64,000 bases of DNA from Candidatus Parcubacteria bacterium (GCA_018664825.1 JABJNO010000025.1:3022-67021), one strand, 5' to 3'. Positions 20,401 through 52,312 are shown, counted from the stretch's first letter. Numbers and translations: made by a program. Notes: generated by a model from the letters alone, not told the origin.

Positions 20401-23400
20401 GAAGGCAACGATACAACTGGTTACCAGATTATTACTAGAGATTTATTGGGTAGTGAAGTAGTTACTTTTCTTCCAGATGGAGTAGCTCCATGTACAAATA
20501 TTGCCCCAGGAGGCAATGTTTGCCAGGACACTATCGGTGTTCCTGCGATTTGTGGTGACGAAACTCCAGCTGATCCAACCGATGATCCAGATGTTGATCC
20601 AAATTGTCGTGAATATTTTGATACTACTGGACGTTCATATTTCCGTTTTCAAGACAGAGTTATTTATGCAGACAATGATTGTCATGACTATAAGAGGACT
20701 TCTACTGGGCAAATATACAAAGCTATCCCTAGTAGGAGCATTGCTTGTTCAGCCGAAAACGATGGCTGTCGCTCATACTATGGTAACGCAGCTAATAATT
20801 TGAGAGAAATTTTCTCAGATAATTTTGAGGTGGATATGTACTATTGGGAGGATGCCGCAGGACCAGCGCTTGCGTTGTCTCAGGAGTCACTGAATGACGG
20901 AGGGCAATCTTTGAGAACTCAAACAGGTGGAGTGATATTCAAAGATTTACTTGCTGCTGGTGCTCAGGTATACAATGAAAAAGAATATGAACTTTCTTTC
21001 TGGATGAGGGCAAACGCACCTTTGTCTGATATGCAGGCTAGCCTTCTTGCGAATGATGGAGCCAATCCTTTGGTTATTGTTCCTATGGTAGATCCAGCGG
21101 ATGCCAACTTTAGAAATATTGGAGGAGGCACTTGGAATTATTATACTACCTCTGTATATGTAGATACCCTTAATATTGATTTAAACAATCTTGTAGATTT
21201 ACAGTTGAGACTTTCCTTTAATGGGGGGATAGTGGATGATATTTTCTTGGACAATGTTACGATGAGAGAAGTGTATACTCATCTAGCGGTTGTAAAAGAT
21301 TCTTGGGACACTCCAGTGTCTTGTGATACCCCATACGAAGGTTATCATCTAGGTTGTCAATCTTATATAGATACAAATGGAGCACCTTATAACTTAAAAT
21401 CGTTTTCACACCTATGTAGAGAAGAGGCGATAGGTTGTGCTCCGGCGATTGATACTCAAAACTCAACTTATCCTTTTAGTGAGGAATTCAACACGGGTGA
21501 TTTATCACGTATTACCGTACCAGCAGACAGCTTGACTTTCTTGGTGCCAAATTCTGAAAATTATTGTCCGGAAAATTATAAGGGTTGTAGTGCCCTGGGC
21601 TTGCCTGATGATTCTCTCAATCCATCTTCTTTTGAGACTGTCTACAAAATGAATGACCCAGACGCATACGGAGCTACTTTGTGTGAATTTGAGGGTCTGG
21701 ACTGCGAAGAGTTTAATTCAGCCAAAGGTACGTATTATTTCAAGATTATTTCAGAGCAAGGCAGCTGTAGTTATTTACAAAATGTTTTGATAAATGACGG
21801 CTCAAATGATCAATTGATAAATGGTTGGTTCAATAATTTTTCTATTGCAAATGATACAAATATTGGTTGTTCTGATGATGGAGATGGCACAATAGAACAA
21901 TCAGATTATGACTTTATCTGGGACCATTGTACTGGTCATCCAGATGTCCACACAGAACAAGAATGTACGGTTGGTGGATGGTTTTGGGAAAATAGCCAAA
22001 CAGCCGCTTCTTGTCCACCAGACAGAGATATGTGTACAGCTTTTAGAGATCCACAAGATCCAGTTGGTTGTGATCCAAACATCCAAGATAGAAATATAGA
22101 AGGGTACTGTAGTGATTTTGCGCATACTGATGAAAGTGCTTGTCGTTCAAATGGTGAGACCTGGACTCCTGCTTGTGATGAATATTATTATTATAAAAAC
22201 GATAAAATAGACGAGACTTCTTGCAACGGTCAAGTCGATAGAAATAGTGGCTGTATATTATTGGCAGATGCCAATAATTGGAATGGCGAGCATTCAGAAG
22301 TAGCTTTGTATTATGATAGTAATCAAAGTTATGATCTAAATGTATCTAGAAATCAGCCATACAGTCCGACTACTTGTAATCCTGATATTGATCCAACGTG
22401 TACTTTGGATGCAAATCTTTTGGTCAGAGCCTCAAAGGACAGGCAATGCGCCGAATGGCTAACTTGTAAATCGTCTACCGCAGTGTTCAATAAACAAACA
22501 AATGATTATGATTTGATTTGTGATGGCCTTGATTCTTGTGTTGAATTTGACGATGACGACACTAGCCTTACTAGTTGTAAAAAATGGGCAGATTATAATG
22601 AGACCAATACAGAGGCTTTGACGGCAGAGGTATACCAAACTCGAACTACTGGTAGGTACAACCATCTGGATTGGAGTGATTTTGAATATACTGGATATGC
22701 TGTACCGGATATGCTACCACCTAGTGAATTGGTTACTTACAATTTTGGTGACGAGGATAATCCAGAACCACGTTTGACTTATAGTGTTTGGGATAGCGTG
22801 GCTATCAATACAAGATTTTATGATGCTTGTGTGATCGCCTCTGATCCTGCTCAGCCACTAAATGACGCTGTTTGTACAGCTGAAATATCTGGGGAGAATT
22901 TTTATGGAGATTGTGAAGATGGTATTTGCTGGGTAAACCCAATGGCTCAAAACACTGATATAGATCAATTTCAAGTAGAAACTAGAGGTTACGCCACACC
23001 AAGCGCTCCTTTTCCAGCAGCTATTTCTCCTGGATTGGACAAATTACAGGCTTACAGTAACGCCAATGAGTGTGACGCAGATGAAAATGGTTGTGAGGCA
23101 GCTTATGTCAAAGTGACCTATGGTGACGCTTTGGGTAGCGCTACTGTTTTCCATTATCCGAAAGGATATTCGCCTATTCCTGGTAGTATTTGTACAATGG
23201 GGCGCACTAATGCTGGAATTATATGTACTGAGAATAGTCAGTGTGATTCTGCCTCTGGTAGATTTGATGGTCAATGTGCTCAAAAGACAAAAGAAGAAAC
23301 ATTTTTCAATTGGCAGGGAGTTTGTATGGAAAAAGATAAATCAGAAACTCTAGTCAAGGATAACGAAGACAGTAATAGCTGTAATATATGGTATCCAACT

Positions 23401-26253
23401 GATAGTATAGATGGTATAAGTAGCTTATTCAACAACTTTCGTGAAGCTGGTTATCATGCTGAAGACGGTAATGATGCTTTATTCTGTGCTGTAGCTGAGC
23501 CGTTTGAATTTACTGAAGATACTTATTTTTGTGGTCATACACAAAGTACTGGAGGTCTTACTGTGTGTACGGTTTTGATAAAAGTACCAGCTGGAGCTAT
23601 GGTGAGTTTGTCAGGTATTCAAAATTATGGTGATGAGATAGTAAATGGTTACTTAAGAAACTATGCCGACCATGCCTTTGACGAGCCGATAGATTATAGT
23701 AGTGAATATTCAGGCGCAAGCTTTCCAAATGGCTTTGGTGTAGATTGGGTTGAGAAAAATGGTGTTGGTCCAGATGTATACTATAATCCAAATCAAACAA
23801 CTTCGTGTACGCACTATAATAATTATGATAGTTTGCCAGTGAGCTTTGGTGATGGATATGACTCATTTTTCCGAGATATGGATTTTACTGATGATGATAT
23901 ACCACCGATGAATGATATTCCAGTGATTCCATTTGGCAATGTAGCTGAAGTATTCAATACCGGAGTAACTAGTAATGCCTCTGGTCCAATAGATATATAT
24001 TATTATGATGAAGAAGTTTCTGATAATGGTAATTTTTCTTATACTGCCGGTATTTTGGTACCTGGTGCTGAGCGTTATCATTACGGAATAAGTACTATAT
24101 ATGATGGTAATGTAGTGGCCGATGTTGGCAAGAGCTGTGAAGACAAATGTAGAAATGATTGGGGTGTTTTCTATTGTCCTGACGGCTGGCACGAATCTCT
24201 ACTAAGGAGAAAATACACAGGTTCAAAATGTAAAACATGGGGACCTCGTGAACATTGGAGTTTCCGTTATTGTAATCCAGGCGACCATAACTATTATGTA
24301 AAGGCAGAATATCCACCAACTATGGCACCACCAGCTCAGTGTTCTGAATATGATTGTGGCGCAGCCAATAAAGGACTTAGTTGTTTACATACACCTGGTA
24401 GTACATATAATGACATGTTAACCGCAGTTATTGGCTCTTCCTATAGTTGGATGCTTCCGGTTGATATTGATCCGAATCCAATGGTCACTACTTATAGAGA
24501 TAGATTACCTATACCTAATATGGCATTGGCTGGATTACCTCAATATTGTTATAATAATCCAAACTGTCTATATATATATTGTGTAGAAAGAGCTAGTGTA
24601 TCAAATGATTATTGTAGTGAATTTGGTGAAATAAGAGAAAATACAAATGCAGATGGTGTGGTCACTAGTATTAGTATTATCGAATGTCTGGACAATCTTT
24701 ATGAAACAGACCCTGAAAATGGCGTTCAAGCATTCAAGGTAAAAGATGACACTGATAACGTAGATCCAAACCTTGGCTGGCCACTGGCTATTGACTTAGG
24801 TCTTTTGGATCAAGCCTATAATACAGATTTTGCTTGTTATAATGTATCAAATTCAACCAATCCAATATACGATGGTAGTATTAATAACGAGCTGACATGT
24901 AACAACACATTAAATAGATCTTGGCTAAACAGGGGCTCAGTACAGCCTGCCTTTATGGGTTGCCTGGAGTCTGATGTGGGCGTAGACTGCTCTACTAATT
25001 TTGCAATGGCCCCTGCCAATAGATGCTATTGGTGGAGAAGAGGAAATTGGATAGCTCCATACTATTGTAGTTCTGTCTATGCTACCACGAGAGATGGTGC
25101 AGATTGTACGGGTCTGGAATGTTTCCAACAATGTAGGATAGTGACTGAGCTTGATTCAGAGGGTGATAGGTCTTATGTGCGTACTGATATTTGGTGGAGA
25201 AACGAAGAAAGTACTACTCGTTTAGTGACAGACAACTGGACTTCCTATTATTATCACAACAATACTATTGGTTATGGAGTAGCCAATGGTAATGTAGATT
25301 GGGACAACATCAATGATAATGCAATTCCAGATGAGTTTGGTGATCCGGGTTCATTTGATACTTTTGGTGCTGCTAAGAATAGTATAGGAGATCAAAAATT
25401 ATTTGCTCGAGCACCACTTGATAGTACAAATAATTTTTCAGAGTACTTGACTGCTCACTTCTTTAGTTTTGTATCTGGTACTCCAGAGCCAGTTGTTGAT
25501 GCTTATGCTTTGGCCGAAGATCAGATGGAGTATCTATTTTTCAGAACCTTTAATTTTGAATGGAGATGGGACTTACTCACTAGTCAATATACATATATTG
25601 AGCCAGATACTGCGTACTCTGTAAATTTACGTACTGTAGAGATGCCAAACGGAAACAACAACAATCCATTTGCCGGGGCAGAGTTTGACCCGGTTGTGTA
25701 CAAGAGTTGTGAAAACAAGCTATGTCCAATCACAGATTTGGCAGGAGAGATCCAAAGCTATGAGCACGGTATCACGGTCAATAACTCAAATGTCGGTAGA
25801 ATAAATGGACACGAGTCATTGTTTGTGTCTACCAAGTTTTTCTATTATGCTCACCCGGATCATATGCCTATCGTAGATGTGGGAGTGGTTTGGGGTGATC
25901 AGGATGTCAATCTTGTTTCATCAAATCCTGGTAAATATAAAAATAGTTTGGAAACCTGTGATCCTAATTGGATGGCAAGTCCACCAACAGGCTTTGTCCT
26001 TGGATTTGGTGGTACCGTGGGTGCTTGTCAGGTAGGCTATAAAGTATTTTACAATGATTATGCATATGATGCAGATCCACATGATCCTACAGTAGGACAT
26101 CCTTGTAATGGCGCTACTTATGATATAGCTGCTGGGCCAACTCCAGCTATCAGTGATGCTTCTTGTTTCCGCCCAGGTATTAGAGTAGAGGATAGATGGG
26201 GTCGTGAAACTACAGCTTATTATGATGATTGGATAGTTATCCATAGAAATTAA
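17431..26253 (+). CDS. giant (2940 aa) cysteine-rich extracellular/surface protein
   Basis: Uninterrupted 8.8-kb ORF. N-terminal signal/TM (ILLLIIAILLAVTLIFP). Very high Cys, Asn, Asp and Gly content typical of giant surface proteins of CPR-type genomes. Confidence 0.8.
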   Translation: MKSYKKILLLIIAILLAVTLIFPRLTRSQFATVDQPSTLGNIWNKVETAYDKIQGIVGAELANRTFEMFFNSLAYDVATELAEGGAGGKPQFRTKTIGEYMGNAGGAAVGEFIGTLSEQAFEDLRVNLCSPNALSVKLTLSLSLIDEEAPPKPACDWRRIQRDWGDFADNLSADLIKFQLDPKRGATSTRAFFQSFTMEQSDYGAYAILFQKKEEKKEEAIDASKLSAEECQGYLDKATPITDEVITHCSVTQSMSTMQWFMSWSAQSQKQWEKKNAATSKKLGTILKDAAGKFYSTFTSKLMNNWIKKGMWSLYDLFDGNGGGKYRKGLIEALRGDSNIRQPRNADIFKEFKKIEIVKLDDYSFMDDFSICPPEKDLRKPDNCVIGTDFVQAINSKKTLNEAIAEGLIDPKTPLISPEDLNKNTSDNCYKDSLCYKDLIKLRKTNVIPIGWEIAAQRSSVASPVSLAEAIECFEDAPNSNCIHDTTAVYDINGVPHNPFYHLVDGDWVLKAPKSSCEALVYAPVLESSQSTNRQQYCADMTVCLREDENGNCLDGQYGYCTKSENIWRFRGDMCDDGDIYNGCLTFESNYVDDPGSFIESSLEYCSADQAGCKRYSQEVTNSGEWSLGVIYVDPNDLYLNRREESCNEEFAGCSEYIVLAPNRGVNLVANAGFNNMDGDSDVPFPDGRPDGWIDLATGEDSDGVEYDGDRIANGYPWGGSPHAGTESLYQTIPLVENTTYRISASAGRYNNAVASSGRISILLCDVTGNCANNSLAKPLADGGDCTIPNPGDNNPNLTIFPPASGEMERASCSFTTNSAEIGEAQLYVVSNGSNASWFDNIKVEVVGGPEMAASSYTEYGVGGVVYMSGSTFMCEREEVGCQGYTPVNGGPMVPGTISEGDLCPNECVGYSTFAQQPNIYDIMEDPASNPPVEYYNFIPDTANSCPDSEIGCEEFTNLDEVAQGGEGREYYSFLRQCVEQDLAATFFTWEGNDTTGYQIITRDLLGSEVVTFLPDGVAPCTNIAPGGNVCQDTIGVPAICGDETPADPTDDPDVDPNCREYFDTTGRSYFRFQDRVIYADNDCHDYKRTSTGQIYKAIPSRSIACSAENDGCRSYYGNAANNLREIFSDNFEVDMYYWEDAAGPALALSQESLNDGGQSLRTQTGGVIFKDLLAAGAQVYNEKEYELSFWMRANAPLSDMQASLLANDGANPLVIVPMVDPADANFRNIGGGTWNYYTTSVYVDTLNIDLNNLVDLQLRLSFNGGIVDDIFLDNVTMREVYTHLAVVKDSWDTPVSCDTPYEGYHLGCQSYIDTNGAPYNLKSFSHLCREEAIGCAPAIDTQNSTYPFSEEFNTGDLSRITVPADSLTFLVPNSENYCPENYKGCSALGLPDDSLNPSSFETVYKMNDPDAYGATLCEFEGLDCEEFNSAKGTYYFKIISEQGSCSYLQNVLINDGSNDQLINGWFNNFSIANDTNIGCSDDGDGTIEQSDYDFIWDHCTGHPDVHTEQECTVGGWFWENSQTAASCPPDRDMCTAFRDPQDPVGCDPNIQDRNIEGYCSDFAHTDESACRSNGETWTPACDEYYYYKNDKIDETSCNGQVDRNSGCILLADANNWNGEHSEVALYYDSNQSYDLNVSRNQPYSPTTCNPDIDPTCTLDANLLVRASKDRQCAEWLTCKSSTAVFNKQTNDYDLICDGLDSCVEFDDDDTSLTSCKKWADYNETNTEALTAEVYQTRTTGRYNHLDWSDFEYTGYAVPDMLPPSELVTYNFGDEDNPEPRLTYSVWDSVAINTRFYDACVIASDPAQPLNDAVCTAEISGENFYGDCEDGICWVNPMAQNTDIDQFQVETRGYATPSAPFPAAISPGLDKLQAYSNANECDADENGCEAAYVKVTYGDALGSATVFHYPKGYSPIPGSICTMGRTNAGIICTENSQCDSASGRFDGQCAQKTKEETFFNWQGVCMEKDKSETLVKDNEDSNSCNIWYPTDSIDGISSLFNNFREAGYHAEDGNDALFCAVAEPFEFTEDTYFCGHTQSTGGLTVCTVLIKVPAGAMVSLSGIQNYGDEIVNGYLRNYADHAFDEPIDYSSEYSGASFPNGFGVDWVEKNGVGPDVYYNPNQTTSCTHYNNYDSLPVSFGDGYDSFFRDMDFTDDDIPPMNDIPVIPFGNVAEVFNTGVTSNASGPIDIYYYDEEVSDNGNFSYTAGILVPGAERYHYGISTIYDGNVVADVGKSCEDKCRNDWGVFYCPDGWHESLLRRKYTGSKCKTWGPREHWSFRYCNPGDHNYYVKAEYPPTMAPPAQCSEYDCGAANKGLSCLHTPGSTYNDMLTAVIGSSYSWMLPVDIDPNPMVTTYRDRLPIPNMALAGLPQYCYNNPNCLYIYCVERASVSNDYCSEFGEIRENTNADGVVTSISIIECLDNLYETDPENGVQAFKVKDDTDNVDPNLGWPLAIDLGLLDQAYNTDFACYNVSNSTNPIYDGSINNELTCNNTLNRSWLNRGSVQPAFMGCLESDVGVDCSTNFAMAPANRCYWWRRGNWIAPYYCSSVYATTRDGADCTGLECFQQCRIVTELDSEGDRSYVRTDIWWRNEESTTRLVTDNWTSYYYHNNTIGYGVANGNVDWDNINDNAIPDEFGDPGSFDTFGAAKNSIGDQKLFARAPLDSTNNFSEYLTAHFFSFVSGTPEPVVDAYALAEDQMEYLFFRTFNFEWRWDLLTSQYTYIEPDTAYSVNLRTVEMPNGNNNNPFAGAEFDPVVYKSCENKLCPITDLAGEIQSYEHGITVNNSNVGRINGHESLFVSTKFFYYAHPDHMPIVDVGVVWGDQDVNLVSSNPGKYKNSLETCDPNWMASPPTGFVLGFGGTVGACQVGYKVFYNDYAYDADPHDPTVGHPCNGATYDIAAGPTPAISDASCFRPGIRVEDRWGRETTAYYDDWIVIHRN

Positions 26254-33370: not shown

Positions 33371-33410
33371 AACCTTCGAGGTTAAAAAAACCTCGAAGGT
33401 TATTTTTTTT
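33371..33410 (+). repeat. REP palindrome pair acting as the efp terminator
   Basis: AACCTTCGAGGTT (33371-33383), AAAAA loop, AACCTCGAAGGTT (33389-33401), then T-run. Same 13-mer as the repeats flanking the RAYT gene at 42.5-43.2 kb. Confidence 0.8.
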
Positions 33411-33480: not shown

Positions 33481-35019
33481 ATGCCAACATTAAATAATAC
33501 TAAAAATCAAACTTCTTCAAAAGATAATTGGTCTGATAATTTATTAATCAAGGATAAAGGTGGTAAATTGCACCACTTGAATTCATCAAATAAAGATAAA
33601 AATGTTGGTTCTTTTAGTAAAAAAAGTACAGAAATTGATCATAATTTGAGCTTAGCACCAGCTGATGATAGTTTTTCTGCCAATCAACTTATCGATGGTA
33701 CAGCCGAGACCAGGGCGGATCTTGTGTTTCACCCAGAAGATGATCAACAACTAAAAAAAATTGCCAAAAATATACCTCTCGATGGTAGTAAAAAATACAG
33801 CATTGATAAAATAGCGGAGAGGATAATCGAAAAGCAAGGATTAAAATTTGATACTGGAAATAAAAAGTTATTTATTGATATTCTTTTTGATTTTTTTCGT
33901 AATCGTAAAAAAGCATCAGGAGTACGAGAAATTTTATCTAGTAAAATAAAATCTGCAAAAAAGAGCCTAGCCTTGGAAGTTGTTGATAATATAGTATCCG
34001 TGATCAAAGGTATAAAGGCAAAAGTAGATTCTCAAAGTGGTCTAGTGGTTAGGATGTCAGAAATAGAAAAACCTCCTGTTAAAATTCAACCAGAAATTAC
34101 ACAAAAAATATTACCAGAAATTGGACCACCAAAAGTTGTTTATGATTTGGACGAAGAGGCAGATACTAGTGATATTCAAGAATTGGCTAAATTTGTTGGT
34201 GATATTCCAAAAGAAAAATTTGAAATTCCGGATAAAAAAGCACCTATTGTCAAAGATTTGGAGTCAGATTTGAAAGAAACATTGGAAATAGAAAAAGAGT
34301 TACCCAAAGATATTGAACAAGCTCCAAAGAAAGAAGAAGAGGAAAAGCCTCAGCCTATTCCTGTCAAAATTGTTGAGCCGCCAAAGCAGGAGCCAAAAGA
34401 AGACGTGGTCCTTGCCAAGGTTGCAGATGACAAGAAAGAACCAGGTGGAGGATTTGAAATTCCGGATAAAAAAGCACCTATTGTCAAAGGCTCTGGACAA
34501 ATCAAAGATCAGCCAAAACCGATTAAAAGTTCAGCTACACACGCCAAGGGACTTGAACAAATCAAAAAAGAACCAGTGACCGCTTCTTTGCCAAAAGTTG
34601 TTCGTCCTATGCAGGATGCTAAAAATCAGATTAGTGATGTAAAAACTCAACCAAAACCAGCACCAATGGCACCAAGAGCTGTTCCTAAACATGCTTTGAG
34701 TGGACCGGTGCAAGAGTTACAGGTTTTGGATTTGCACAATTGGAGAAATTTGGGTGACGATGCAGATAGTAGGGCTGAGAGATTGATGGAAAAGATAAAT
34801 ATGTTAGAAGAAGAATCGTTTACCAAAAAAGCCCAAGGTATAGATGCTTGGAGAAAGAGTCCTGTTCATCAAGAATATTTGGAGTTAGGGGCAGAGAGTA
34901 TGGGTCAGGGTAAAGAAGTATCAACCTTGATTACCGAATATGAGCAACAAGGTAAAGAAACCTTATCAATAGAAGAATTTGCCGCTGTATCTGATTTAAA
35001 TAAAAAATTAAGGTTCTAG
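33481..35019 (+). CDS. hypothetical Lys/Pro/Glu-rich low-complexity protein with internal duplicated FEIPDKKAPIVK segment
   Basis: Long ORF. Repeats at aa ~240 and ~330. Immediately upstream of the T4SS-like genes. Confidence 0.4.
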   Translation: MPTLNNTKNQTSSKDNWSDNLLIKDKGGKLHHLNSSNKDKNVGSFSKKSTEIDHNLSLAPADDSFSANQLIDGTAETRADLVFHPEDDQQLKKIAKNIPLDGSKKYSIDKIAERIIEKQGLKFDTGNKKLFIDILFDFFRNRKKASGVREILSSKIKSAKKSLALEVVDNIVSVIKGIKAKVDSQSGLVVRMSEIEKPPVKIQPEITQKILPEIGPPKVVYDLDEEADTSDIQELAKFVGDIPKEKFEIPDKKAPIVKDLESDLKETLEIEKELPKDIEQAPKKEEEEKPQPIPVKIVEPPKQEPKEDVVLAKVADDKKEPGGGFEIPDKKAPIVKGSGQIKDQPKPIKSSATHAKGLEQIKKEPVTASLPKVVRPMQDAKNQISDVKTQPKPAPMAPRAVPKHALSGPVQELQVLDLHNWRNLGDDADSRAERLMEKINMLEEESFTKKAQGIDAWRKSPVHQEYLELGAESMGQGKEVSTLITEYEQQGKETLSIEEFAAVSDLNKKLRF

Positions 35020-42474: not shown

Positions 42475-42508
42475 AACCTTCGAGGTTGGATGTCCAACCT
42501 CGAAGGTT
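42475..42508. repeat. REP palindrome pair (5' flank of RAYT)
   Basis: AACCTTCGAGGTTGG-ATGT-CCAACCTCGAAGGTT, a 15-bp perfect stem. An additional single copy TGTCCAACCTCGAAGGTT sits at 42563-42580. Confidence 0.8.
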
Positions 42509-42619
42509 AAATTTGACGTAAATTAATTTATAGTCTACTCTAAAAAAGAAGAAAAGCGATTTTGTCCAACCTCGAAGGTTAGATAAGGTCGGTTATTTAT
42601 ATAATTTACCTTATTTTTT

Positions 42620-43189
42620 ATGCCAAATAAATCAAGGAACATTTATGCAGGTAACTATTACCATATTTATAATAGAGCAGTAGAGAAGAGAACTATATTT
42701 TATAGTGAAAGTGATTATGAATATTTTATTTCTAAAGCTATCTTATATAAAGAAATGACGGAGGTAAAGATATTGGCTTATTGTATTTTACCAAACCATT
42801 TTCATTTTTTATTGAAAGAACCAAAATCAACCTCGAAGGTTGAAATCTCGGCAATTTCTAAATTTATTTCTCTTTTGTCTAATTCATATACAAAACATTT
42901 TAACTTAACCAAGGAACATTCTGGTAGGCTGTTTCAGGGGCCATTCAAGTCTAAGTTAGTAGATGATGATAGTTATTTGAAAGTTTTATTAAACTATATA
43001 AATTTGAATCATTTAAAACATAAAATAACTGACAAAGTTAATGACTGGCCTTATAGTTCACATCATAATTATGTAGGGAAGTGGAAATATAATTTGATTG
43101 GGAAAGATTGTATAGTTGATTTTGAAGAATATAAACAGGTTATAAATTATTATAAAAATAGTTTATCTAGTTTATACGAAGAATTTTAA
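42620..43189 (+). mobile_element. REP-associated tyrosine transposase (RAYT, IS200/IS605-like Y1 HuH transposase)
   Basis: HuH motif LPNHFHFLL and C-terminal YINLNHLKH...NDWPYSS (catalytic Tyr, NPV-like motif and WPxSS typical of TnpA_REP). Gene contains one REP copy internally (42829-42841) and its stop codon overlaps another (43189-43201). Confidence 0.75.
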
Positions 43190-43201
43190 CCTCGAAGGTT
43201 G
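43189..43201. repeat. REP copy (3' flank of RAYT, between RAYT and recG)
   Basis: AACCTCGAAGGTT. Confidence 0.7.
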
Positions 43202-43203
43202 AT

Positions 43204-46018: not shown

Positions 46019-46106
<88 letters not shown>

Positions 46107-46243
46107 TTCGATTCGCTTTTGCTTTGCAAAAGCTCACTCATGGTCTACGGTGCTAAAATAGCACCTCCAACCAGTTTATTTATAGAATCGAATGTCCTGA
46201 GCGAAGTCGAAGGACAGGAGACATTGAAATATTATTATTGCTA

Positions 46244-46319
46244 GTCCTCGTAGCTCAGTGGATAGAGCGTTTGGTTGCGGTCCAAAAGGTCGCAGGTTCG
46301 ATTCCTGCCGGGGACACCA
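46244..46319 (+). tRNA. tRNA-Arg (anticodon read as GCG), encoded CCA
   Basis: 76-nt cloverleaf: acceptor GTCCTCG/CGGGGAC, D-arm GCTCAGTGGATAGAGC, anticodon stem TTTGG/CCAAA with loop TTGCGGT, T-arm GCAGGTTCGATTCCTGC, ACCA. Anticodon assignment by hand. Confidence 0.65.
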
Positions 46320-46390
46320 AGCTTCGACAAGCTCAGCTTGGATAAGCTTGTCCTGAGCGAAGCCGAAGGGCATTATATTATCAACCAAAT

Positions 46391-46482
46391 GGAGAGGTGG
46401 CAGAGTGGTTGAATGCGGCACCCTGCTAAGGTGTTATTCCGTTTATTCGGGATCGAGGGTTCGAATCCCTCCCTCTCCGCCA
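46391..46482 (+). tRNA. tRNA-Ser (anticodon GCT), long variable arm, encoded CCA
   Basis: Acceptor GGAGAGG/CCTCTCC, anticodon stem GCACC/GGTGT with loop CTGCTAA, long extra arm, T-arm GAGGGTTCGAATCCCTC, GCCA. Confidence 0.8.
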
Positions 46483-46560
46483 CTTCGTGCTAGCACGAAG
46501 ATATTAAAAACAACTTCATTAGAAAGCTGTTTTTTTTTGATAAATCAAAAATATAATATT

Positions 46561-46591
46561 AAAAAACTATCCTGCGAGGGATAGCTTTTTT
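46561..46591. terminator. bidirectional terminator
   Basis: A6-CTATCC-TGCGAG-GGATAG-T6. Confidence 0.5.
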
Positions 46592-46619
46592 ATGTATCTT
46601 GTTTGATAGCTATAATTTG

Positions 46620-46895
46620 CTATACATTTTCCACACCAAGATCTCGTGCTATGTTTTTTAATGCTTCTACGGTAGTCATGACTTCATTTGTGTCAGTTAC
46701 AGTTTCCAAGTGTGCCACTAATTCGACAGCTTTTGCTTTTTTTCGTTCAACCTCTCCTTGTGCTACACTAGCTTCTCTTTCATCCACCAAGTTAGCATCT
46801 TCTCCTAATTACTCAACTGATGAATCTTCAATTTGTTTTAGTAAATCAAGTCCTGTTTCTTTCATTTTTCTCAAATCCTCTGCTGGATTTGGCAT
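46620..46895 (-). pseudogene. small ORF (28 + 62 codons) interrupted by a single in-frame TAA; possible pseudogene or two tiny genes
   Basis: Minus-strand frame from ATG 46895 reads MPNPAEDLRKMKETGLDLLKQIEDSSVE-TAA-LGEDANLVDEREASVAQGEVERKKAKAVELVAHLETVTDTNEVMTTVEALKNIARDLGVENV-TAG. Both halves have protein-like composition. The plus-strand ORF 46603..46929 is its antisense. Confidence 0.25.
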
Positions 46896-46982
46896 TGTGT
46901 CAAAACCTATAAAATATTTACGTTACTAATTATATAATTCTTAATAAAAGCTTAACAAAAATCTTATACTCTCGCAATACTA

Positions 46983-49046
46983 CTATTCCATACCCAAGAA
47001 ATCTTTTTCTGTCTTAGTGATATAAGATTTTAGATCCTGTAAAGAGCTAGCCAATTGTTCCGGGTTACTATAACTTGCTTGTATGCTGGTAGTTATGGTA
47101 GATAGATTTGTCCTATCTTCATCGTCGGTTTCGTCCAATATATCTTCGTTAAATTTGGCTATAGCTTCGACTACTTGCTGTTGATCTAATTCCGGATTAG
47201 CCAATACTCTTTCTAGAGCACTGATTTCATCTCGAATAGAAATATGTGTAATTTCTTCCATGACTACTTCAATTTCAGTACTAGCCTCACTGAAACTATC
47301 ACCAAAATCAAAGTTTGCTTTATCACTAATAAAAGATAACTCTGCCATCAAAACTTTTTTTTCTTCGGCAGAATCGGTTTCTCTAATTTTTCTAACAACA
47401 ATCCCTAGCTCTGCCATATGCTCTTTGGATATACCAAAATCCTCCATGGCCTTGGTAAAAGCTTTGATAGACATTTTATCGCCAAATAAATTGCCGAGCA
47501 AGGCTTGAGCTTGGGAAATTTCCATTTTAATCTTAGGGATTATTTTGCCAGCTACCTCCATCATTTCTACTCCTTTGACCACACCAGAAAATTGCCCCAA
47601 AGTCATATCTACGGTAACGGGACTAAATTGATTTTCAATAGCATCCAAATAACCTTTTCGCCTATCAGGATTTTGCTCTTTGCCTGCTATACCTCTTAAT
47701 TCCTCTTTATATTTATCTAGCATGATAGTATCTATTTTTCCATTATGAATCTCAGCATAAAGTTTCACTTTTTGAAGTACACGCATCACATCCGTTGAAC
47801 GGAAAAACGCAGGACATTTTATTTCGGCTGTCACTCCTAGGGCATCAACGGTAGAAGTGATAGATCTGACGGTGTCACGATTTATATCTTCAATTTGATC
47901 TGTAGATGGATATTCGGACATCACGTAGCTATGTTGTAAAATACCTTCGCGAATCATCTCATAACCCTCTTCACCAAATTTATCTATATAATAATCAGCG
48001 TTGTCTTCGACATATCTAGTACTAAACAATGGATGATCTTTGGAAGCATCAAAACTACCCTTAGCTTGAGCTACGCCAGCAGCATATCCTATATCATGAT
48101 CTATGATAATTTGACGAATTATAATTTTGTCTTTGGCAGAAACACGATCTCCCAAGCCATCCATCATGCTGTCAGCTATATTCATATTACCTTCCAAAAT
48201 ATGTCGCGTACCATGATCTGATCCAGAAAACACTCTCTTATCAAGAGAGGTTTGATAAACAAGTTTTCGAGCATTATCTTGAACCAAAGATTGAATTGTT
48301 TCGATGGTAGCCTCAGGATAAGCCTCTTGATATTGTTTAATATAAATACTCGATTCTCTTTCTATTAATTTAGCTTCTGATTCTTCAATAGAAACTTCTG
48401 GGCTATCAATAAATTCTTGCAACTCCTCACTGATAGCTGCCAAAATTTGTTCAGTATCGACTGCTTCAGGAATTTCTTTTTCTTTTACATTCAAATATAA
48501 CATCATGTCAGAATGAAAAGCTTCTGGATTGACTGCGCCAGAATCAATTTTTTGTTGTAATTCTTCATAGGCATTCAATTGCGCTTCTTCGTGTTCGGCG
48601 ATAGTTTCAGCCCCCTTATGATGCCTACTGACCAGTCCCTTAGCATAATCTTCTTTAGTTTTGGCTCTTAGTTCCATCAATTCCTCCTCGCTACTTCTAT
48701 CTATAAGACTAGATATTTCCTTAATTTGTTCAGAGTGACTAGTATTTATTTCGTCAATTTCTTGCTGCACAGTCAATAATTCAGCTTGTCCATTTTTCAA
48801 GTCTTCCTCTGTACCTCCGACTGATTCTACGATACTAGTTAAAATATTATTATTTTCTTGCTGCATAGTATCCACTTCTGCTGCTCTATCAGAAAGATCT
48901 TCAAGAGTTGCCTCTACATATTCCCTAAAATTTTCTTGACTTTCAGCTGCTTGATCTGCTAGTTGATCCAAATCAAGCTCAGTTTCTTGATCCTGACTTG
49001 GTTCTTCAATATTTTCTACTGCTGATAATTTGTCTTCTTTAAGCAT
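46983..49046 (-). CDS. acidic coiled-coil protein with putative HD-domain phosphohydrolase core
   Basis: N-terminal 250 aa highly acidic/coiled-coil. Central GSDHGTRHILEG and IIDHDIGY resemble the H...HD metal-binding motif. Confidence 0.4.
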   Translation of the reverse strand: MLKEDKLSAVENIEEPSQDQETELDLDQLADQAAESQENFREYVEATLEDLSDRAAEVDTMQQENNNILTSIVESVGGTEEDLKNGQAELLTVQQEIDEINTSHSEQIKEISSLIDRSSEEELMELRAKTKEDYAKGLVSRHHKGAETIAEHEEAQLNAYEELQQKIDSGAVNPEAFHSDMMLYLNVKEKEIPEAVDTEQILAAISEELQEFIDSPEVSIEESEAKLIERESSIYIKQYQEAYPEATIETIQSLVQDNARKLVYQTSLDKRVFSGSDHGTRHILEGNMNIADSMMDGLGDRVSAKDKIIIRQIIIDHDIGYAAGVAQAKGSFDASKDHPLFSTRYVEDNADYYIDKFGEEGYEMIREGILQHSYVMSEYPSTDQIEDINRDTVRSITSTVDALGVTAEIKCPAFFRSTDVMRVLQKVKLYAEIHNGKIDTIMLDKYKEELRGIAGKEQNPDRRKGYLDAIENQFSPVTVDMTLGQFSGVVKGVEMMEVAGKIIPKIKMEISQAQALLGNLFGDKMSIKAFTKAMEDFGISKEHMAELGIVVRKIRETDSAEEKKVLMAELSFISDKANFDFGDSFSEASTEIEVVMEEITHISIRDEISALERVLANPELDQQQVVEAIAKFNEDILDETDDEDRTNLSTITTSIQASYSNPEQLASSLQDLKSYITKTEKDFLGME

Positions 49047-49048
49047 AT

Positions 49049-49234
49049 TTATATATTATTAATACCTTCTTTAATTTTTCTTATTTTTTTATCTTCTATA
49101 TTCTTAACTGTTTTACTCATGATATTCTTTTGTTTTTTTTGAAGGGCTCGCAATTTAATCAAATAGTCCTCGTGAAGAGCCTTGATTTCATTGACCTTAT
49201 TTTGCAAATCTGTTCTTGATATTTTAGTATCCAT
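49049..49234 (-). CDS. small basic coiled-coil protein (tandem paralog 2)
   Basis: 61 aa. Shares ISRT..LQNKVNEIKALH / ISQEELKRRSQEIAKLH and IMSKTVKNI / IISRTVSDI pattern with 49237..49455. Confidence 0.35.
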   Translation of the reverse strand: MDTKISRTDLQNKVNEIKALHEDYLIKLRALQKKQKNIMSKTVKNIEDKKIRKIKEGINNI

Positions 49235-49236
49235 AA

Positions 49237-49455
49237 TTATTTTTTTAAAAAAGAAAGTAATCTTTTGATAAAGTTTCTGCGCTTAGTTTTGTTTAATTCT
49301 TGGCGATTTTGTATGTCACTGACTGTTCTAGAAATTATATTATCTTGCTTAATACTTAAATTATCCAAGTTTTTTTTCCAAGCAGCATGAAGTTTAGCAA
49401 TTTCTTGAGAACGACGCTTTAGTTCTTCTTGTGAAATATTTGTATCAATTTTCAT
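49237..49455 (-). CDS. small basic coiled-coil protein (tandem paralog 1)
   Basis: 72 aa, similar to the downstream 61-aa ORF. 3-nt gap between them. Confidence 0.35.
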   Translation of the reverse strand: MKIDTNISQEELKRRSQEIAKLHAAWKKNLDNLSIKQDNIISRTVSDIQNRQELNKTKRRNFIKRLLSFLKK

Positions 49456-49613
49456 AAAATAATTATACTAATATCGTTCTTCTGAGTCAAGTGAAGAATG
49501 TTCTTAAAAGAATCTCTTATTTTTTCAAATGACTTGATAATGCACGAGGATCTATTGATTTATAAATAAGAATAGTGTAGAATCTCCTTACCAGAATTAA
49601 CGGTTGGCGGTTC

Positions 49614-49741
49614 CAGCACGAGGAAGCCCGCCATTCGACTCGTCATAACTTTGTTATGACTCGCTCATAGTCTTCGACCACTCTTTGCTTTTGTAAATAC
49701 TTAGTGTCGAATGTTCTGAGTGAGCAGAGCGAACCAAGGGG
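49614..49741. repeat. ~128-bp structured repeat, copy A (upstream of thrS)
   Basis: GGCGG..CAGC..GCCCGCCATTCGACTCGTCATAACTTTGTTATGACTCGCTCAT(A/G)GTCTTCGACCACTCTTTGCTTTTGTAAATACTTAGTGTCGAATGT(T/C)CTGAGTGAGCAGAGCGAACCAAGGGG. 2 mismatches vs copy B over the 116-bp core. Confidence 0.85.
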
Positions 49742-49803
49742 CACGAGAATTTCGTGCTAGCACAATGAACTAAGCACCCAAATTGGGTGTTTTTGTCTTG
49801 CTA

Positions 49804-50019
49804 TTGGACTTTTATCAAAAAAGGTATATAATAAATAATGATTTAAGATGATTGGAATAGCTACCAACTATTCTTCTGTAAATATTACAGAATCCTTGTA
49901 GTAAAGGGCTAAATCAAAAATTAATGATAAAGAGGCTTGGGTTATTATAATACTCAGGCAACTTGGGTGGAACCGCCCCTAATTGGGGTCCCGAGACTTA
50001 ATAAGTCTGGGGTTTTTTT
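49804..50019 (+). promoter_or_regulatory. thrS leader: promoter plus T-box-like riboswitch with intrinsic terminator
   Basis: TTGGAC (49804-49809), 17 nt, TATAAT (49827-49832). Candidate specifier ACC followed by A (49863-49866) in loop context AATAGCTACCAACTATTC. T-box core GGGTGGAACCGC (49965-49976) matching AGGGUGGNACCGCG. Terminator CCCGAGACTT-AAT-AAGTCTGGGG plus T7 (49990-50019), 21 nt before the thrS ATG. Confidence 0.5.
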
Positions 50020-50040
50020 ATCCAAAATTAGTAAAAAAAT

Positions 50041-51795
50041 ATGCAAAATAACGAAAAAATACACAAAATACGTCATTCATTGTCTCATATCTTGGCTATG
50101 GCCATATTACGTAAATTTCCTGATGCTCAATTGGCCATTGGGCCAGTTATTGACAATGGCTTTTATTATGACTTCCTTTTGCCAGATAGTTTGTCTGAGG
50201 CTGATTTACCAAAGGTAGAAAAAGAAATGAAGAAAATAATTTCTCAGAAAATAAAATTTGAGAAAAGTGTTATTAGTAGAGAAGAGGCCTTAAAGAAATA
50301 TGAAGAACAAAATTTTAAAGTAGAGCTAATCGATGATTTGCCAAAAGACGAAAAAATAAGCTTTTATTCTTCTGGAGACTTTACTGATCTTTGCGCTGGG
50401 CCTCATGTAGAATTTAGTACCGAGATCAATCCCAAAGCTTTTAAATTGACTTCTACTGCTGGTGCTTATTGGCGTGGTGATGAAAACAGGCAAATGTTGA
50501 CTCGTGTGTATGGTGTAGCTTTTGAAAATAAAGAAGAGTTAGATGAATACCTAGCTGTTCTAGAAGAGGCCAAAAAGCGTGATCACAGAAAACTTGGTAA
50601 AGAATTAGATTTATTTTCTTTTTCAGATTTAGTGGGTTCTGGTCTGCCACTTTGGAGTCCCAAAGGAACAGTTATTCGTAATGAATTACAAAAGGCTCTA
50701 CTTGAAATTAGTACAAAATACGGTGTCACTCCGGTGACTATTCCTCATATTGCTAAACGAAAATTATATGAAATATCTGGACATGCTGAAAAATTTTCTA
50801 ATGAATTAATAAAAGTTATTAGTCATTATGGTGAATTTGTTATGAAGCCAGTCAATTGCCCTCATCATACCCAAATATATGATTCTCGACCACGTAGCTA
50901 TCGTGATCTACCGATTCGCTACATGGAATCAACCATGCAATATCGTGATGAAAAACCAGGAGAAATATCTGGTCTGACCAGAGTTCGTTCTATCACAGTA
51001 GATGATGGTCATACCTTTTGCCTACCCGATCAAATCAAACAAGAGGCCAAAAATTTAGCAAGTATTATCAAAGAATTCTACGGTAATTTAGGTTTATTTG
51101 GCCAGCACTGGGTTTCACTTTCAGTTCGTGATCCAGAAAAACCAGAAGCTTATATTGGCGACTTAAAGGATTGGGAAAAAAGCGAAAAAATGCTAGCTGA
51201 ATTATCTGACGAATTAAAACTTAATGCTAAACGTGTAGAGGGCGAAGCTGCTATATATGGGCCTAAGTTAGACTATATGTTTAAAGATTCATTAGGTCGA
51301 GAATGGCAATTAGCTACTATTCAGCTTGATTTTGCTATGCCCAAAAGATTTGAATTGACCTATACAGATAAAGATGGCAAAAATAAAACACCCGTCATGA
51401 TTCATCGGGCTATTCTTGGTTCCTATGAAAGATTTTTGGCTATATTAATTGAGCATTATGCGGGAGCTTTTCCAGTTTGGCTAGCCCCAGTACAGATAAA
51501 AATTATTTCTGTTGGAGAAGGTCATATTGAATATTGTCAAAAATTGGCTACTAAATTTATGGCCGAGAACATACGTGTTGAGCTAGATACTTCTGATGAA
51601 ACAGTCGGCAACAAAATACGTAAATCATCTCAGGAAAAGATATCATACACCTTGGTAATTGGTGACAAGGAGATGGATTCTAAAGATTTGGCTGTTAGAG
51701 TACGTGGTAAAAAAGATTTATTAAATATTGACCAAGAAGAATTTATCACAAAAATAAAAACAAACATAAAAAATCGTAGTTTGGAGCTTTTATAA
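50041..51795 (+). CDS. thrS: threonyl-tRNA synthetase (lacks N-terminal TGS domain)
   Basis: Class II motifs. Editing-domain start RHSLSHILAMAI...AIGPVIDNGFYYDF. HRAILGSYERFLAILIEHYAGAFPVWLAPVQ. C-terminal anticodon-binding domain. Confidence 0.9.
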   Translation: MQNNEKIHKIRHSLSHILAMAILRKFPDAQLAIGPVIDNGFYYDFLLPDSLSEADLPKVEKEMKKIISQKIKFEKSVISREEALKKYEEQNFKVELIDDLPKDEKISFYSSGDFTDLCAGPHVEFSTEINPKAFKLTSTAGAYWRGDENRQMLTRVYGVAFENKEELDEYLAVLEEAKKRDHRKLGKELDLFSFSDLVGSGLPLWSPKGTVIRNELQKALLEISTKYGVTPVTIPHIAKRKLYEISGHAEKFSNELIKVISHYGEFVMKPVNCPHHTQIYDSRPRSYRDLPIRYMESTMQYRDEKPGEISGLTRVRSITVDDGHTFCLPDQIKQEAKNLASIIKEFYGNLGLFGQHWVSLSVRDPEKPEAYIGDLKDWEKSEKMLAELSDELKLNAKRVEGEAAIYGPKLDYMFKDSLGREWQLATIQLDFAMPKRFELTYTDKDGKNKTPVMIHRAILGSYERFLAILIEHYAGAFPVWLAPVQIKIISVGEGHIEYCQKLATKFMAENIRVELDTSDETVGNKIRKSSQEKISYTLVIGDKEMDSKDLAVRVRGKKDLLNIDQEEFITKIKTNIKNRSLELL

Positions 51796-51896
51796 TTAAT
51801 TGTTTAGATCCAAGCAAATAATAAAAAATAAGGTGCTCTAATATTTTTTGATTTATAAATAAAAATCCCTTAGATAGGGTTAACTTATGGCGGCTT

Positions 51897-52024
51897 CAGC
51901 CCGATGTAGCCCGCCATTCGACTCGTCATAACTTTGTTATGACTCGCTCATGGTCTTCGACCACTCTTTGCTTTTGTAAATACTTAGTGTCGAATGTCCT
52001 GAGTGAGCAGAGCGAACCAAGGGG
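51897..52024. repeat. ~128-bp structured repeat, copy B (downstream of thrS)
   Basis: 98% identical to copy A over the 116-bp core. Starts with hairpin ATGGCGG...CCGCCAT. Confidence 0.85.
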
Positions 52025-52111
52025 TAGGAATACCATTGTTTGTGGTATTTTTTGTTTACAAACAGATTAATATTAGCTATGATAATTATATTGAGTATTT
52101 AAAATAAAAAT

Positions 52112-52285
52112 ATGGGAAAAGAAAAAGGAGCTGAAGGCGCAATCTATGGATTGGGTTTTATCGGTGCAGTAGTGTATTATATTCAACATGCAGATTCTTT
52201 TGCAACTGGAGTTATAGGCTTTCTAAAAGCATTGGTTTGGCCAGCAATGGTCGTGTACAAAGTGCTTGAATATTTGAATATGTAA
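52112..52285 (+). CDS. small hydrophobic protein (57 aa, 2 TM)
   Basis: MGKEKGAEGAIYGLGFIGAVVYYIQHADSFATGVIGFLKALVWPAMVVYKVLEYLNM. Followed by hairpin terminator 52294-52316 shared with convergent comFC. No SD. Confidence 0.3.
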   Translation: MGKEKGAEGAIYGLGFIGAVVYYIQHADSFATGVIGFLKALVWPAMVVYKVLEYLNM

Positions 52286-52312
52286 ACTAAAAATACGGCG
52301 TAAGCCGTATTT

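Follow-up and report, generated by a model that had tools for sequence, protein, structure and literature searches.

Introduction

Repetitive extragenic palindromic (REP) sequences and REPINs are mobilised by RAYT transposases of the Y1 (HUH) type (Bertels and Rainey, 2011; PMC3116915), and theta ribozymes, which resemble the ribozyme of hepatitis delta virus (HDV), adjoin phage tRNAs, where they are thought to help trailer removal (PMC10879173). Here we describe a structured element of about 110 nucleotides (nt) that is like both of these systems in part and differs from both. It was met in a 64,000-nt stretch from Candidatus Parcubacteria bacterium (GCA_018664825.1 JABJNO010000025.1:3022-67021; hereafter the window, in which positions are counted from the first letter), where two near-identical copies stand on either side of thrS, the gene for threonine-tRNA ligase. 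A first-pass annotation of the window had pointed out this repeat pair and its likeness to sequence behind nearby tRNA genes, and had offered a structured small RNA, an element resembling a miniature inverted-repeat transposable element (MITE) or tRNA-derived integration scars as readings. The main point, which the annotation did not contain, is that the repeats belong to a family that crosses phyla and attaches to tRNA and transfer-messenger RNA (tmRNA) genes at their CCA end.

Family members in several phyla begin at the CCA of tRNA and tmRNA genes

A genome collection scanned with two conserved blocks of the element as the pattern gave 28 loci, 19 of them true copies, in Komeili-, Sacchari-, Parcu-, Gracili- and Uhrbacteria and in other metagenome-assembled genomes (MAGs), and in nearly all of these the element begins immediately 3' of a tRNA. 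A metagenome scan with head and tail anchors gave at least 120 loci, with about 85 true copies among the matches listed, many of them at 60-70% G+C. The scan patterns themselves fixed some of the blocks that are called invariant below. A tRNA predicted by ARAGORN directly precedes 69 of the 112 pattern-defined copies, and 29 anticodons are represented. Other hosts are tmRNA genes (L080 and others; contigs and loci are cited by L number), 3' fragments of tRNA or tmRNA genes, or a simple hairpin followed by CCA, as at thrS. The CCA junction is exact in every copy, and the element always lies on the tRNA-sense strand.

The first-pass annotation had allowed that there might be neither further copies nor a conserved structure. 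A covariance model built from 11 copies found 95 copies at E<=1e-8 in 99 sources, which comprised Patescibacteria and high-GC contigs, one of the latter being Armatimonadota-like. No Rfam 15 family overlapped any copy, whether in the window region (E<=10) or in 15 loci of high GC (E<=1); plasmids, phages and IMG/VR held no genuine copies; and full-text literature searched by sequence strings and keywords held no description of the element. The family of about 110-nt elements is apparently undescribed, and its CCA anchoring, its cross-phylum core and its two-fold design are not described in the sources searched.

Two observations concern the carriers. On the Armatimonadota-like contig, six tandem copies follow a tRNA-Gln (L142 10732-11356; also listed, L128 432-745), the tandem unit being the element plus a 25-nt spacer that ends in TGACCA. 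Four element-bearing MAGs (L014, CAZEWH010000008.1; L006; L012; L015) are labelled 'uncultured Gammaproteobacteria'. For L014 this label looks wrong, because the contig is syntenic with the Parcubacteria window and 73-78% identical to it (RecG, the tRNA cluster, a ComF-like gene and ClpB).

The element is structured and its pairs covary

On the tRNA strand, the 5' part of the consensus reads (N)CCA/UUCGAyUC, where the slash marks the junction, followed by helix P2 of free sequence and length, UCGCUCA, and the hairpin P3, (A)UGG...CCA(U). The 3' part consists of a variable linker or hairpin, (GA)GUCGAAUG(GU) and a tail hairpin, which is composed of GUCCU GAG y GA, P5, and GA r UCGA AGGrC. P5 is often a 2-bp stem closed by a GNA loop, is long in some copies and is absent in others; some copies lack P2 or P5. 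The blocks shared as invariant are CCA/UUCGAyUC, UCGCUCAUGG, GUCGAAUG, GUCCUGAGyGA and GArUCGAAGGrC, and the hairpins between them vary freely with compensation. In many copies P1 is lengthened by pairs of free sequence, its other side reaching CCA and the discriminator base (GAAUGGUG opposite CACCAUUC).

Across 93 distinct copies, aligned to a covariance model that in itself favours structure, 94.3% of paired cells are complementary versus 81.7% in shuffles, with slid controls at no more than 49%. The covariation score is 0.315 versus 0.130, and none of 500 shuffles reaches the observed value. Changes on both sides occur in 16 pairs, amounting to 347 such cells versus 95 in shuffles, and are found in seven of seven pairs of P2. 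Exchanges elsewhere are as follows: CG 39 and UA 37 in P3; CG 72, UA 18 and other 3 at the pyrimidine:purine pair of the tail; GC 51 and AU 18 in P5; and CG 80 and UA 7 in P1. In a strand test, G·U pairs outnumber A·C pairs by 100 to 28, which marks the tRNA-sense strand as the folding strand. It is thus strongly supported that the element is structured, with a P1 that pairs with CCA, two hairpins (P2 and P3) and a tail hairpin rich in G and A. The word 'structured' in the annotation's small-RNA reading is borne out, and the absence of conserved structure that it had allowed for is not what is seen, since covariation exceeds both the shuffled and the slid controls.

Two alternative predicted folds and a possible role in tRNA processing

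Read in reverse complement, the head half of the element (CCAUUCGACUC-P2-UCGCUCAUGG) resembles the tail. For this reason the covariance model gives weak matches on the opposite strand too (up to 41 bits), and head-tail pairing over 8 bp and UCGCUCA-UGAGyGA pairing over 7 bp become possible. These long-range helices (A and C) are 93-97% complementary, and the fold that contains them is the more stable in 75 of 95 copies (mean 5.7 kcal/mol, nearest-neighbour energies). The local fold is compensated where positions vary, unlike the long-range fold. By modelling, the local fold would mask CCA, whereas the long-range fold would free it and place a helix directly on its 3' side. The two folds may constitute a working switch, or they may be a mere consequence of the inverted modules. 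The pair 13:79, which is internal to the head, covaries as well as the P1 pair 13:176.

These features bear on two different explanations. The first is that the element is an RNA processing module useful to its host, either a new ribozyme that cleaves itself or a structure imitating what RNase P or RNase Z would cut, with a putative cut at CCA/U. The tRNA would be released with a finished 3' end and without exonuclease trimming, and the thrS copies would be genes for small RNAs that work by the same chemistry. The exact junction in every copy is in keeping with this, as are the invariant junction nucleotides with freely varying peripheral stems, known from ribozymes and riboswitches, the folding specific to the tRNA-sense strand, and the alternative folds that would mask or expose CCA, the second setting a helix directly after it. 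There is a precedent in the HDV-like theta ribozymes beside phage tRNAs (PMC10879173). Against it stand the absence of a match to any Rfam ribozyme or other family even at E<=10, and the loss of P2 or P5 from some copies. Cleavage by a standard small ribozyme would moreover end A76 in a 2',3'-cyclic phosphate, and aminoacylation is blocked by such an end. Nor is the element required for maturation, since most tRNAs of these contigs lack it, as do the same tRNAs in related genomes. We consider such a module unlikely.

The second is that the element acts purely in DNA, as a REPIN- or PATE-like miniature. A HUH (Y1) transposase would read two inverted single-stranded DNA hairpins and insert the element 3' of a CCA beside a hairpin, and the RNA fold would be a by-product. 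The inversion of the head relative to the tail-like module with its reverse-strand shadow matches to 41 bits, the pairing of the inverted modules over 15 bp, and the covariation of the pair internal to the head module, which is like that of the tail-module pair, all speak for this. On the other side, the hairpins that a transposase must read (P2 and P5) vary in sequence and length or are missing. The evidence from gene content is taken up below.

Four structural readings were considered and rejected. A UCGCUCA/UGAGYGA pseudoknot as the conserved fold is mismatched at variable positions (A opposite C in eight copies), and this pairing was retained only within the alternative fold. A hammerhead (CUGAGYGA..GAA) would have its core one nucleotide over, stem II is missing in many copies, and no Rfam hammerhead matched. 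An HDV-like topology has the helix order wrong, as P1b follows the variable linker and not P3. For a K-turn or box C/D motif in the tail hairpin, the spacing is wrong.

Two copies bracket thrS

The features of the thrS region are as follows.

49555-49583, + strand: promoter-like site of copy A, TTGATT-17 nt-TAGAAT (scan; a consensus match only)
49605-49633, + strand: GC hairpin TGGCGG...CCGCCA of copy A, with CCA at 49631-49633 (sequence and fold)
49634-49742, + strand: element copy A, 109 nt (covariance model match 49627-49746, 101.7 bits, E=1e-26), made up of head TTCGACTC, P2 at 49642-49660, conserved TCGCTCA at 49661-49667, P3 at 49668-49680, an AU-rich linker, P1b GTCGAATG at 49706-49713 and the tail hairpin (T-module) at 49713-49742
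from 49743, + strand: extra hairpin GCACGA..TCGTGC after copy A, with TCGTGCTAGCAC at 49752-49763 (sequence)
49772-49797, + strand: intrinsic-terminator-like hairpin CACCCAAATTGGGTG and T run, after the extra hairpin of copy A (sequence and scan)
49805-49832, + strand: promoter-like site of thrS (consensus scan), a unit separate from the repeat
to 50020, + strand: probable thrS T-box leader and terminator (Rfam T-box match 49839-49996 at 42 bits, below the gathering score of 93)
50041-51795, + strand: thrS, threonine-tRNA ligase, 584 amino acids (aa) (Pfam tRNA_SAD, tRNA-synt_2b, HGTP_anticodon)
51848-51876, + strand: promoter-like site of copy B, TTGATT-17 nt-TAGATA, homologous to that of copy A (repeat families D4 and D13; sequence reading)
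51888-51916, + strand: GC hairpin TGGCGG...CCGCCA of copy B, with CCA at 51914-51916 (sequence and fold)
51917-52025, + strand: element copy B, with parts as in copy A and the tail hairpin at 51996-52025 (covariance match 51910-52029, 110.4 bits, E=4.5e-29)
52030-52056, + strand: intrinsic-terminator-like hairpin ATACCA..TGGTAT and T run, after copy B (sequence reading)

A repeat finder places the direct-repeat pair at 49597-49746 and 51880-52029, 150 nt at 92% identity with a spacing of 2283 nt, in a single family. Base-by-base comparison of the 118-nt cores, 49624-49741 and 51907-52024 (AGCCCGCCATTCG to AAGGGG), finds only two mismatches, which are A at 49669 versus G at 51952 and T at 49715 versus C at 51998, copy A being named first. 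Copy A ends 300 nt 5' of the thrS open reading frame (ORF) and copy B starts about 100 nt 3' of the gene. The near-identical repeats that the first-pass annotation had reported are therefore real, and so are its smaller observations: the TGGCGG...CCGCCA hairpin at each copy, the internal palindromes (GTCATAAC-TTT-GTTATGAC and the pairing of ATTCGAC with GTCGAAT), and the TCGTGCTAGCAC common to the flank of copy A (49752-49763) and that of tRNA-Ser(gct) (46485-46496). With four matches at no more than one mismatch on both strands versus 0.11 expected, TCGTGCTAGCAC is above chance, as is CCGCCATTCGA with three occurrences versus 0.37.

The GC hairpin occupies the place that the tRNA 3' end takes in other copies. 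The roughly 30 nt 5' of the cores, in which it lies, are far more diverged between the copies than the cores are; the loop of the copy A hairpin differs from that of copy B at many positions and the stem is kept. A block TTGATTTATAAATAA(G/A)AAT precedes both copies (repeat families D4 and D13). Judged from their predicted promoters and terminators, the two copies each look like a small transcription unit of their own. A stand-alone copy in L060 has the same order as copy A (element, TCGTGCTAGCAC, CACCC..GGGTG terminator), and this architecture, kept in another species with predicted promoter and terminator, adds to the case for a host processing module as well as to that for the explanation favoured below. 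In the supported fold, one of the A/B differences weakens P3 and the other gives a G·U pair in the tail stem. A reading of 49669 and 49715 as a compensating pair was dropped, as they pair only in one ad hoc register.

Collapsed or duplicated repeats can arise in MAGs, and the annotation had raised an assembly duplication as a possibility. The thrS arrangement is matched at 99.9-100% identity in NCBI, JGI and several ENA assemblies (L001-L005, L158, L160-L163, L165). Five contigs from different projects span both copies and carry the same two differences, and further contigs carry the copy B side. An arrangement that recurs in at least ten independent contigs is not an assembly duplication, and with the family present in more than 100 unrelated contigs, the chance that the repeats reflect an assembly duplication or fortuitous similarity is close to negligible.

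Contigs without thrS and a fluid neighbourhood

The annotation had also suggested that the repeats could mediate excision or duplication of thrS. In two contigs of the same species (L159 and L164) thrS is missing, and the 72-aa ORF is joined to the 57-aa ORF through a single copy, which has copy A's promoter-like site and hairpin, then a core bearing both copy B bases, and on its right the flank of copy B. Both contigs are shorter by 2283 nt, exactly the repeat spacing, and the switch falls within a 45-nt identical stretch. This agrees with the suggestion, with the caveat that an assembly jump across the repeat would look alike. The sole private single-nucleotide polymorphism (SNP) is at 48502 in L159, and flank SNPs did not mark the thrS-less contigs as a separate strain; right-flank mismatches that had seemed to be strain marks proved to be the copy A hairpin aligned to copy B. 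We consider it likely that the thrS-less contigs are a real recombinant, the alternative being a mis-join. A genuine chromosome without thrS, a gene that cells normally need to live, would imply a second thrS locus or a transient product.

Related genomes also differ in whether repeats surround thrS, a comparison that the annotation had proposed. A 92%-identical ThrS is encoded behind the same T-box leader among different neighbour genes, with no repeat on either side, and homology of this relative to the window is limited to 49804-51830. The leader (49839-50020), which contains GGGTGGAACCGC and a terminator hairpin, is conserved in the same relative.

The neighbourhood is fluid, because the block at about 46483-52300 is not next to the tRNA cluster of L014 and, in further contigs of the window's species, is joined to a BipA-like gene. 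That junction is seen in L001, L002 and L005, via a tRNA-Ser 3' remnant; in L001 (1270-1330) and L005 (2860-2925) the block from the 55-aa ORF is joined to the BipA-like GTPase gene (compare window 46458-46500). The remnant comprises the T arm, acceptor and CCA with two base changes, followed by the palindrome CTTCGTGCTAGCACGAAG, where the window has the full tRNA cluster instead. Read from its sequence, the BipA junction has the look of the border of an island, or else of a rearrangement at the 3' end of a tRNA.

One could take the thrS copies for the attL and attR scars of an integrase-type island that brought thrS to a tRNA-like site. Many copies do follow 3' fragments of tRNA or tmRNA genes, as island borders do; the block is missing beside the L014 tRNA cluster and is joined to the BipA-like gene via a tRNA-Ser remnant in three contigs; and the 92% relative has thrS in another neighbourhood. 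The core, however, starts after CCA and holds no tRNA sequence, members of the same family fill 100-nt spacers within tRNA operons where there is no island, and no integrase gene is found among the ORFs of the block. A fragment followed by an element is more simply an island that entered a tRNA already carrying the element. The tRNA-3'-end-derived scars proposed in the annotation are on these grounds very unlikely, even if tRNA 3' fragments precede many copies.

Related copies at the tRNA cluster

In the window, the covariance model detects four copies, three of them full and one mini. Those outside the thrS region, and a palindrome that accompanies them, lie in the tRNA cluster.

46107-46215, + strand: diverged full copy (copy S), in the spacer between tRNA-Ser(tga) (46019-46106), whose CCA it directly adjoins, and tRNA-Arg
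46317-46371, + strand: mini version, after tRNA-Arg(gcg) (46244-46319), 21.8 bits, E=3e-4, repeat family D12
46483-46500, + strand: palindrome CTTCGTGCTAGCACGAAG, directly after the CCA of tRNA-Ser(gct) (46391-46482), sharing TCGTGCTAGCAC with the flank of copy A

Copy S, which accounts for the related sequence that the annotation had seen 3' of tRNA-Ser(tga) (46104-46215), is matched at 46100-46219 with 73.5 bits and has a fold z-score of -5.5; its counterpart in L014 sits after tRNA-Ser(gct). The mini version consists of a hairpin CCAAGCT..AGCTTGG, which includes the CCA, and a tail hairpin GTCCTGAGCGAAGCCGAAGGGC, and it contains the short GTCCTGAGCGAAGCCGAAGG noted earlier 3' of tRNA-Arg at 46350-46371. 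The mini type also occurs after tRNA-Pro in L026.

Smaller pieces are found at similar places. The palindrome TCGTGCTAGCACGA stands directly after a tRNA CCA (46483-46500), after the tail of copy A (49752-49763) and after that of the stand-alone copy in L060 (10798-10809), and may be another small module of the same system. Hairpins that start with CCA follow other tRNAs, in the flanks of Asp in L079, Arg in L064, Lys in L122 and Thr in L042, at window 46317-46341 and at L026 3470-3494; examples are CCAGACTTCGCTCGCG..CGCGAGCTTCGTCTAG and CCARGCT-TCGACARGCTC-AGCYTGG. Such hairpins suggest that there are more families of this CCA-anchored kind, related to the present one.

Patchy occupancy and probable gain and loss

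Occupancy differs between related tRNA clusters. In the window, tRNA-Ser(tga) carries the full copy S, tRNA-Arg the mini version and tRNA-Ser(gct) none; in the syntenic relative L014 (73-78% identity), tRNA-Ser(gct) carries a full copy, and tRNA-Ser(tga) and tRNA-Arg carry none. The Ile-Phe-Pro-Gly operons of L026 and L033 differ in occupancy at Pro and Gly. Among 48 other tRNAs on element-bearing contigs, all of which encode CCA, about three quarters are without an element, and at element-free sites CCA is followed by unrelated sequence. A subfamily typified by copy S (GAUUC head, UCACUCA, P3 insertion) has members behind tRNA-Ser and tRNA-Ile as well as stand-alone ones.

Tandem arrays and nested partial copies also occur. 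Nested tail hairpins of the form GTCCTGAGCG-[GAGTCCTGAGTTTATCGGAGGAC]-GAAGTCGAAGGAC were observed at L021 2410-2455 and L029 4921-4960, which indicates that one tail module can be inserted at the apex of another. In 581 kb there are 111 tail modules, of which 107 are inside CCA-anchored composites and only one is clearly solo; the four in the window are all at tRNAs or in the two thrS copies. The ends of the element are inverted-repeat-like (TTCGACTC / GAGTCGAA), the flanks show no duplication, and the sequence past GGRC is unrelated to the CCA side.

The annotation's MITE-like reading survives in part. The many tRNA sites, the presence or absence in related operons, the shared subfamilies, and the tandem and nested partial copies all fit a mobile element; a classical MITE, however, would have a target-site duplication and a known transposase partner, and the element has neither.

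The window's Y1 gene and its palindrome

The window encodes a Y1 (IS200-like, RAYT-like) transposase ORF of 189 aa at 42620-43189 (Pfam Y1_Tnp E=7.5e-9). Copies of a palindrome unit, AACCTCGAAGGTT, flank this ORF and also lie inside it (42475-43203), and inverted pairs of the unit stand at 42475-42508 and 33371-33401; it has seven sites in the window versus 0.04 expected. By their sequences, the Y1 gene and AACCTCGAAGGTT look like a REP/RAYT system, one unlike the thrS repeats. The RAYT-like gene was considered as the partner of the element and rejected, its palindrome being different and no homologue lying near other copies in 0.9 Mb of element-bearing loci.

This returns us to the purely DNA-level explanation, to which the presence of a Y1 transposase gene in the window lends some weight. 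Mini-hairpins of the GCGAAGC type with GNA loops are very stable in DNA too, and the IS200/IS605 family inserts precisely 3' of a short motif without duplication. REPINs, furthermore, are known mobile doublets (PMC3116915). Yet the window's Y1 gene is flanked by its own, different palindrome with seven sites, 107 of 111 tail modules lie inside CCA-anchored elements whereas REPs are dispersed, and no plasmid or phage copies were found. A near-identical core across phyla is also unusual for REP families. All told, we hold it improbable that the element acts at the DNA level only.

The favoured explanation

We favour, with moderate confidence, a non-autonomous mobile element that is structured and resides in the trailer of tRNA-type genes, the thrS copies being members of it; it would refold, be processed at CCA/U and recombine. 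As a selfish module it would spread between CCA-ending sites, within and between genomes, by means of some enzyme. The element would be transcribed within the tRNA precursor, and the thrS copies from their own predicted promoters to their own predicted terminators. The fold that covariation supports would have CCA and the opening 6-13 nt of the element paired with an internal guide-like GUCGAAUGG (P1), next to two small hairpins and a tail hairpin that would be built on tandem G·A pairs. The more stable long-range fold would pair head with tail and free CCA, with a helix immediately 3'. With that geometry, an RNase P- or RNase Z-type nuclease of the host, or the element itself, could cut at CCA/U and leave the host tRNA unharmed. 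Removal at this point is proposed because an element that blocked maturation there would be harmful. On this favoured explanation thrS is probably bracketed incidentally, by one copy on each side, and 118-nt near-identical direct repeats can recombine, which would explain the contigs that miss thrS and one repeat.

A more specific proposal, possible but rather unlikely, is that the element is a functional RNA of a new class, a two-state trailer on the CCA of tRNA and tmRNA: P1 would mask CCA, a head-on-tail refolding would turn it into a tRNA-like or rod-like substrate, and its own catalysis or RNase P or Z would remove it exactly at CCA/U. The processing-RNA and DNA-level explanations are live alternatives to the mobile trailer element, and scars and artefact are poorly supported.

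Several points weigh against the mobile trailer element. Mobility is deduced from patchy distribution, which would follow equally from an ancient origin with frequent loss and gene conversion. No transposase, recombinase or reverse transcriptase is linked to the element, and 0.9 Mb of element-bearing loci hold no Y1 homologue besides the window's own gene. The conservation of the blocks is partly imposed, because the search patterns fixed some of them. The long-range fold is uncompensated at variable positions (19 mismatches at 13:243, eight at 79:197), and the head inversion together with the covariation of 13:79 fits recognition of both strands at the DNA level as well as it fits an RNA fold. 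As to the step that gives the thrS copies promoters of their own, 40 promoter-like consensus sites were found versus 24 expected in this AT-rich genome. Finally, coverage of L159 and L164 is 2-3x, and mis-joins are possible if some strains carry an unmutated copy A.

Other features of the window

Apart from these elements, the window contains a perfect 38-nt direct repeat (34218-34255 and 34452-34489, 234 nt apart) within an ORF at 33481-35019, and a single ORF of 2940 aa at 17431-26253.

Significance

If the family is as it appears, then in Patescibacteria, in an Armatimonadota-like lineage and in many soil bacteria the first nucleotides past the CCA of tRNA and tmRNA genes belong to a conserved folded element that annotation has missed. 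The element bears on tRNA 3'-end maturation in organisms with reduced RNase sets, and is a candidate for a new ribozyme or nuclease-guide RNA and for a mobile element with an undescribed target rule, the CCA end of tRNA-like genes. In practice, it is a source of spurious ORFs, assembly breaks and rearrangements that move essential genes such as thrS. Should the two-state trailer hold, the element would be a 'self-erasing' parasite at the RNA level, or a processing cassette, spread across phyla and possibly moving via an RNA intermediate that uses the tRNA 3' end.

Comparison with known systems

From each of the known families that could be tested, the element differs in defining features. Like the theta ribozymes, it would be a structured RNA that starts beside a tRNA 3' end. 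It is, however, predicted to form a three-way junction with a GA hairpin and not a nested double pseudoknot, it has no HDV-type Rfam match, and its hosts are cellular, with no IMG/VR or phage match.

In T-boxes, UGG(N) pairs with the (N)CCA of a tRNA, much as P1b of the element, GAAUGG(U), pairs with (A)CCAUUC. Unlike a T-box, the element pairs in cis with the tRNA just upstream, lacks a specifier loop and regulates no gene downstream; the true T-box leader, that of thrS (49839-49996), stands next to it as a separate unit.

The thrS locus also recalls integron attC sites, in that a gene (thrS with its leader) lies between two folded, strand-specific sites of conserved structure and the gene-less form keeps one site. 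It differs from an integron in having no R or L boxes, integrase or array, and the family is otherwise attached to tRNAs and not to cassettes. It differs from the att sites of tRNA-gene integrases in that the core has no tRNA similarity and the block no integrase ORF.

Classical MITEs differ as well, the element having no target-site duplication and ends that are only inverted-repeat-like. The miniatures derived from IS200/IS605 (PATEs) share with it the lack of classical terminal inverted repeats and of duplication, a precise insertion 3' of a short motif and subterminal hairpins on one strand. The hairpins of the element, in contrast, vary freely, no TnpA, TnpB or omega-RNA partner was found for it, Y1 homologues having been sought in 0.9 Mb of loci, and no IS605-type RNA in Rfam matches it. 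The geometry of its ends and hairpins does not match IS608.

Like REPs and REPINs, finally, the element is a short, non-coding, intergenic set of imperfect palindromes with inverted modules that form a long hairpin, variable copy number and strand-specific folding. Its tail modules are almost never alone, so the family is not a dispersed REP, and the RAYT-like gene of the window is not flanked by it. Whereas REPs are dispersed and species-specific, the element is a composite fixed to CCA, and its core is nearly the same across phyla.

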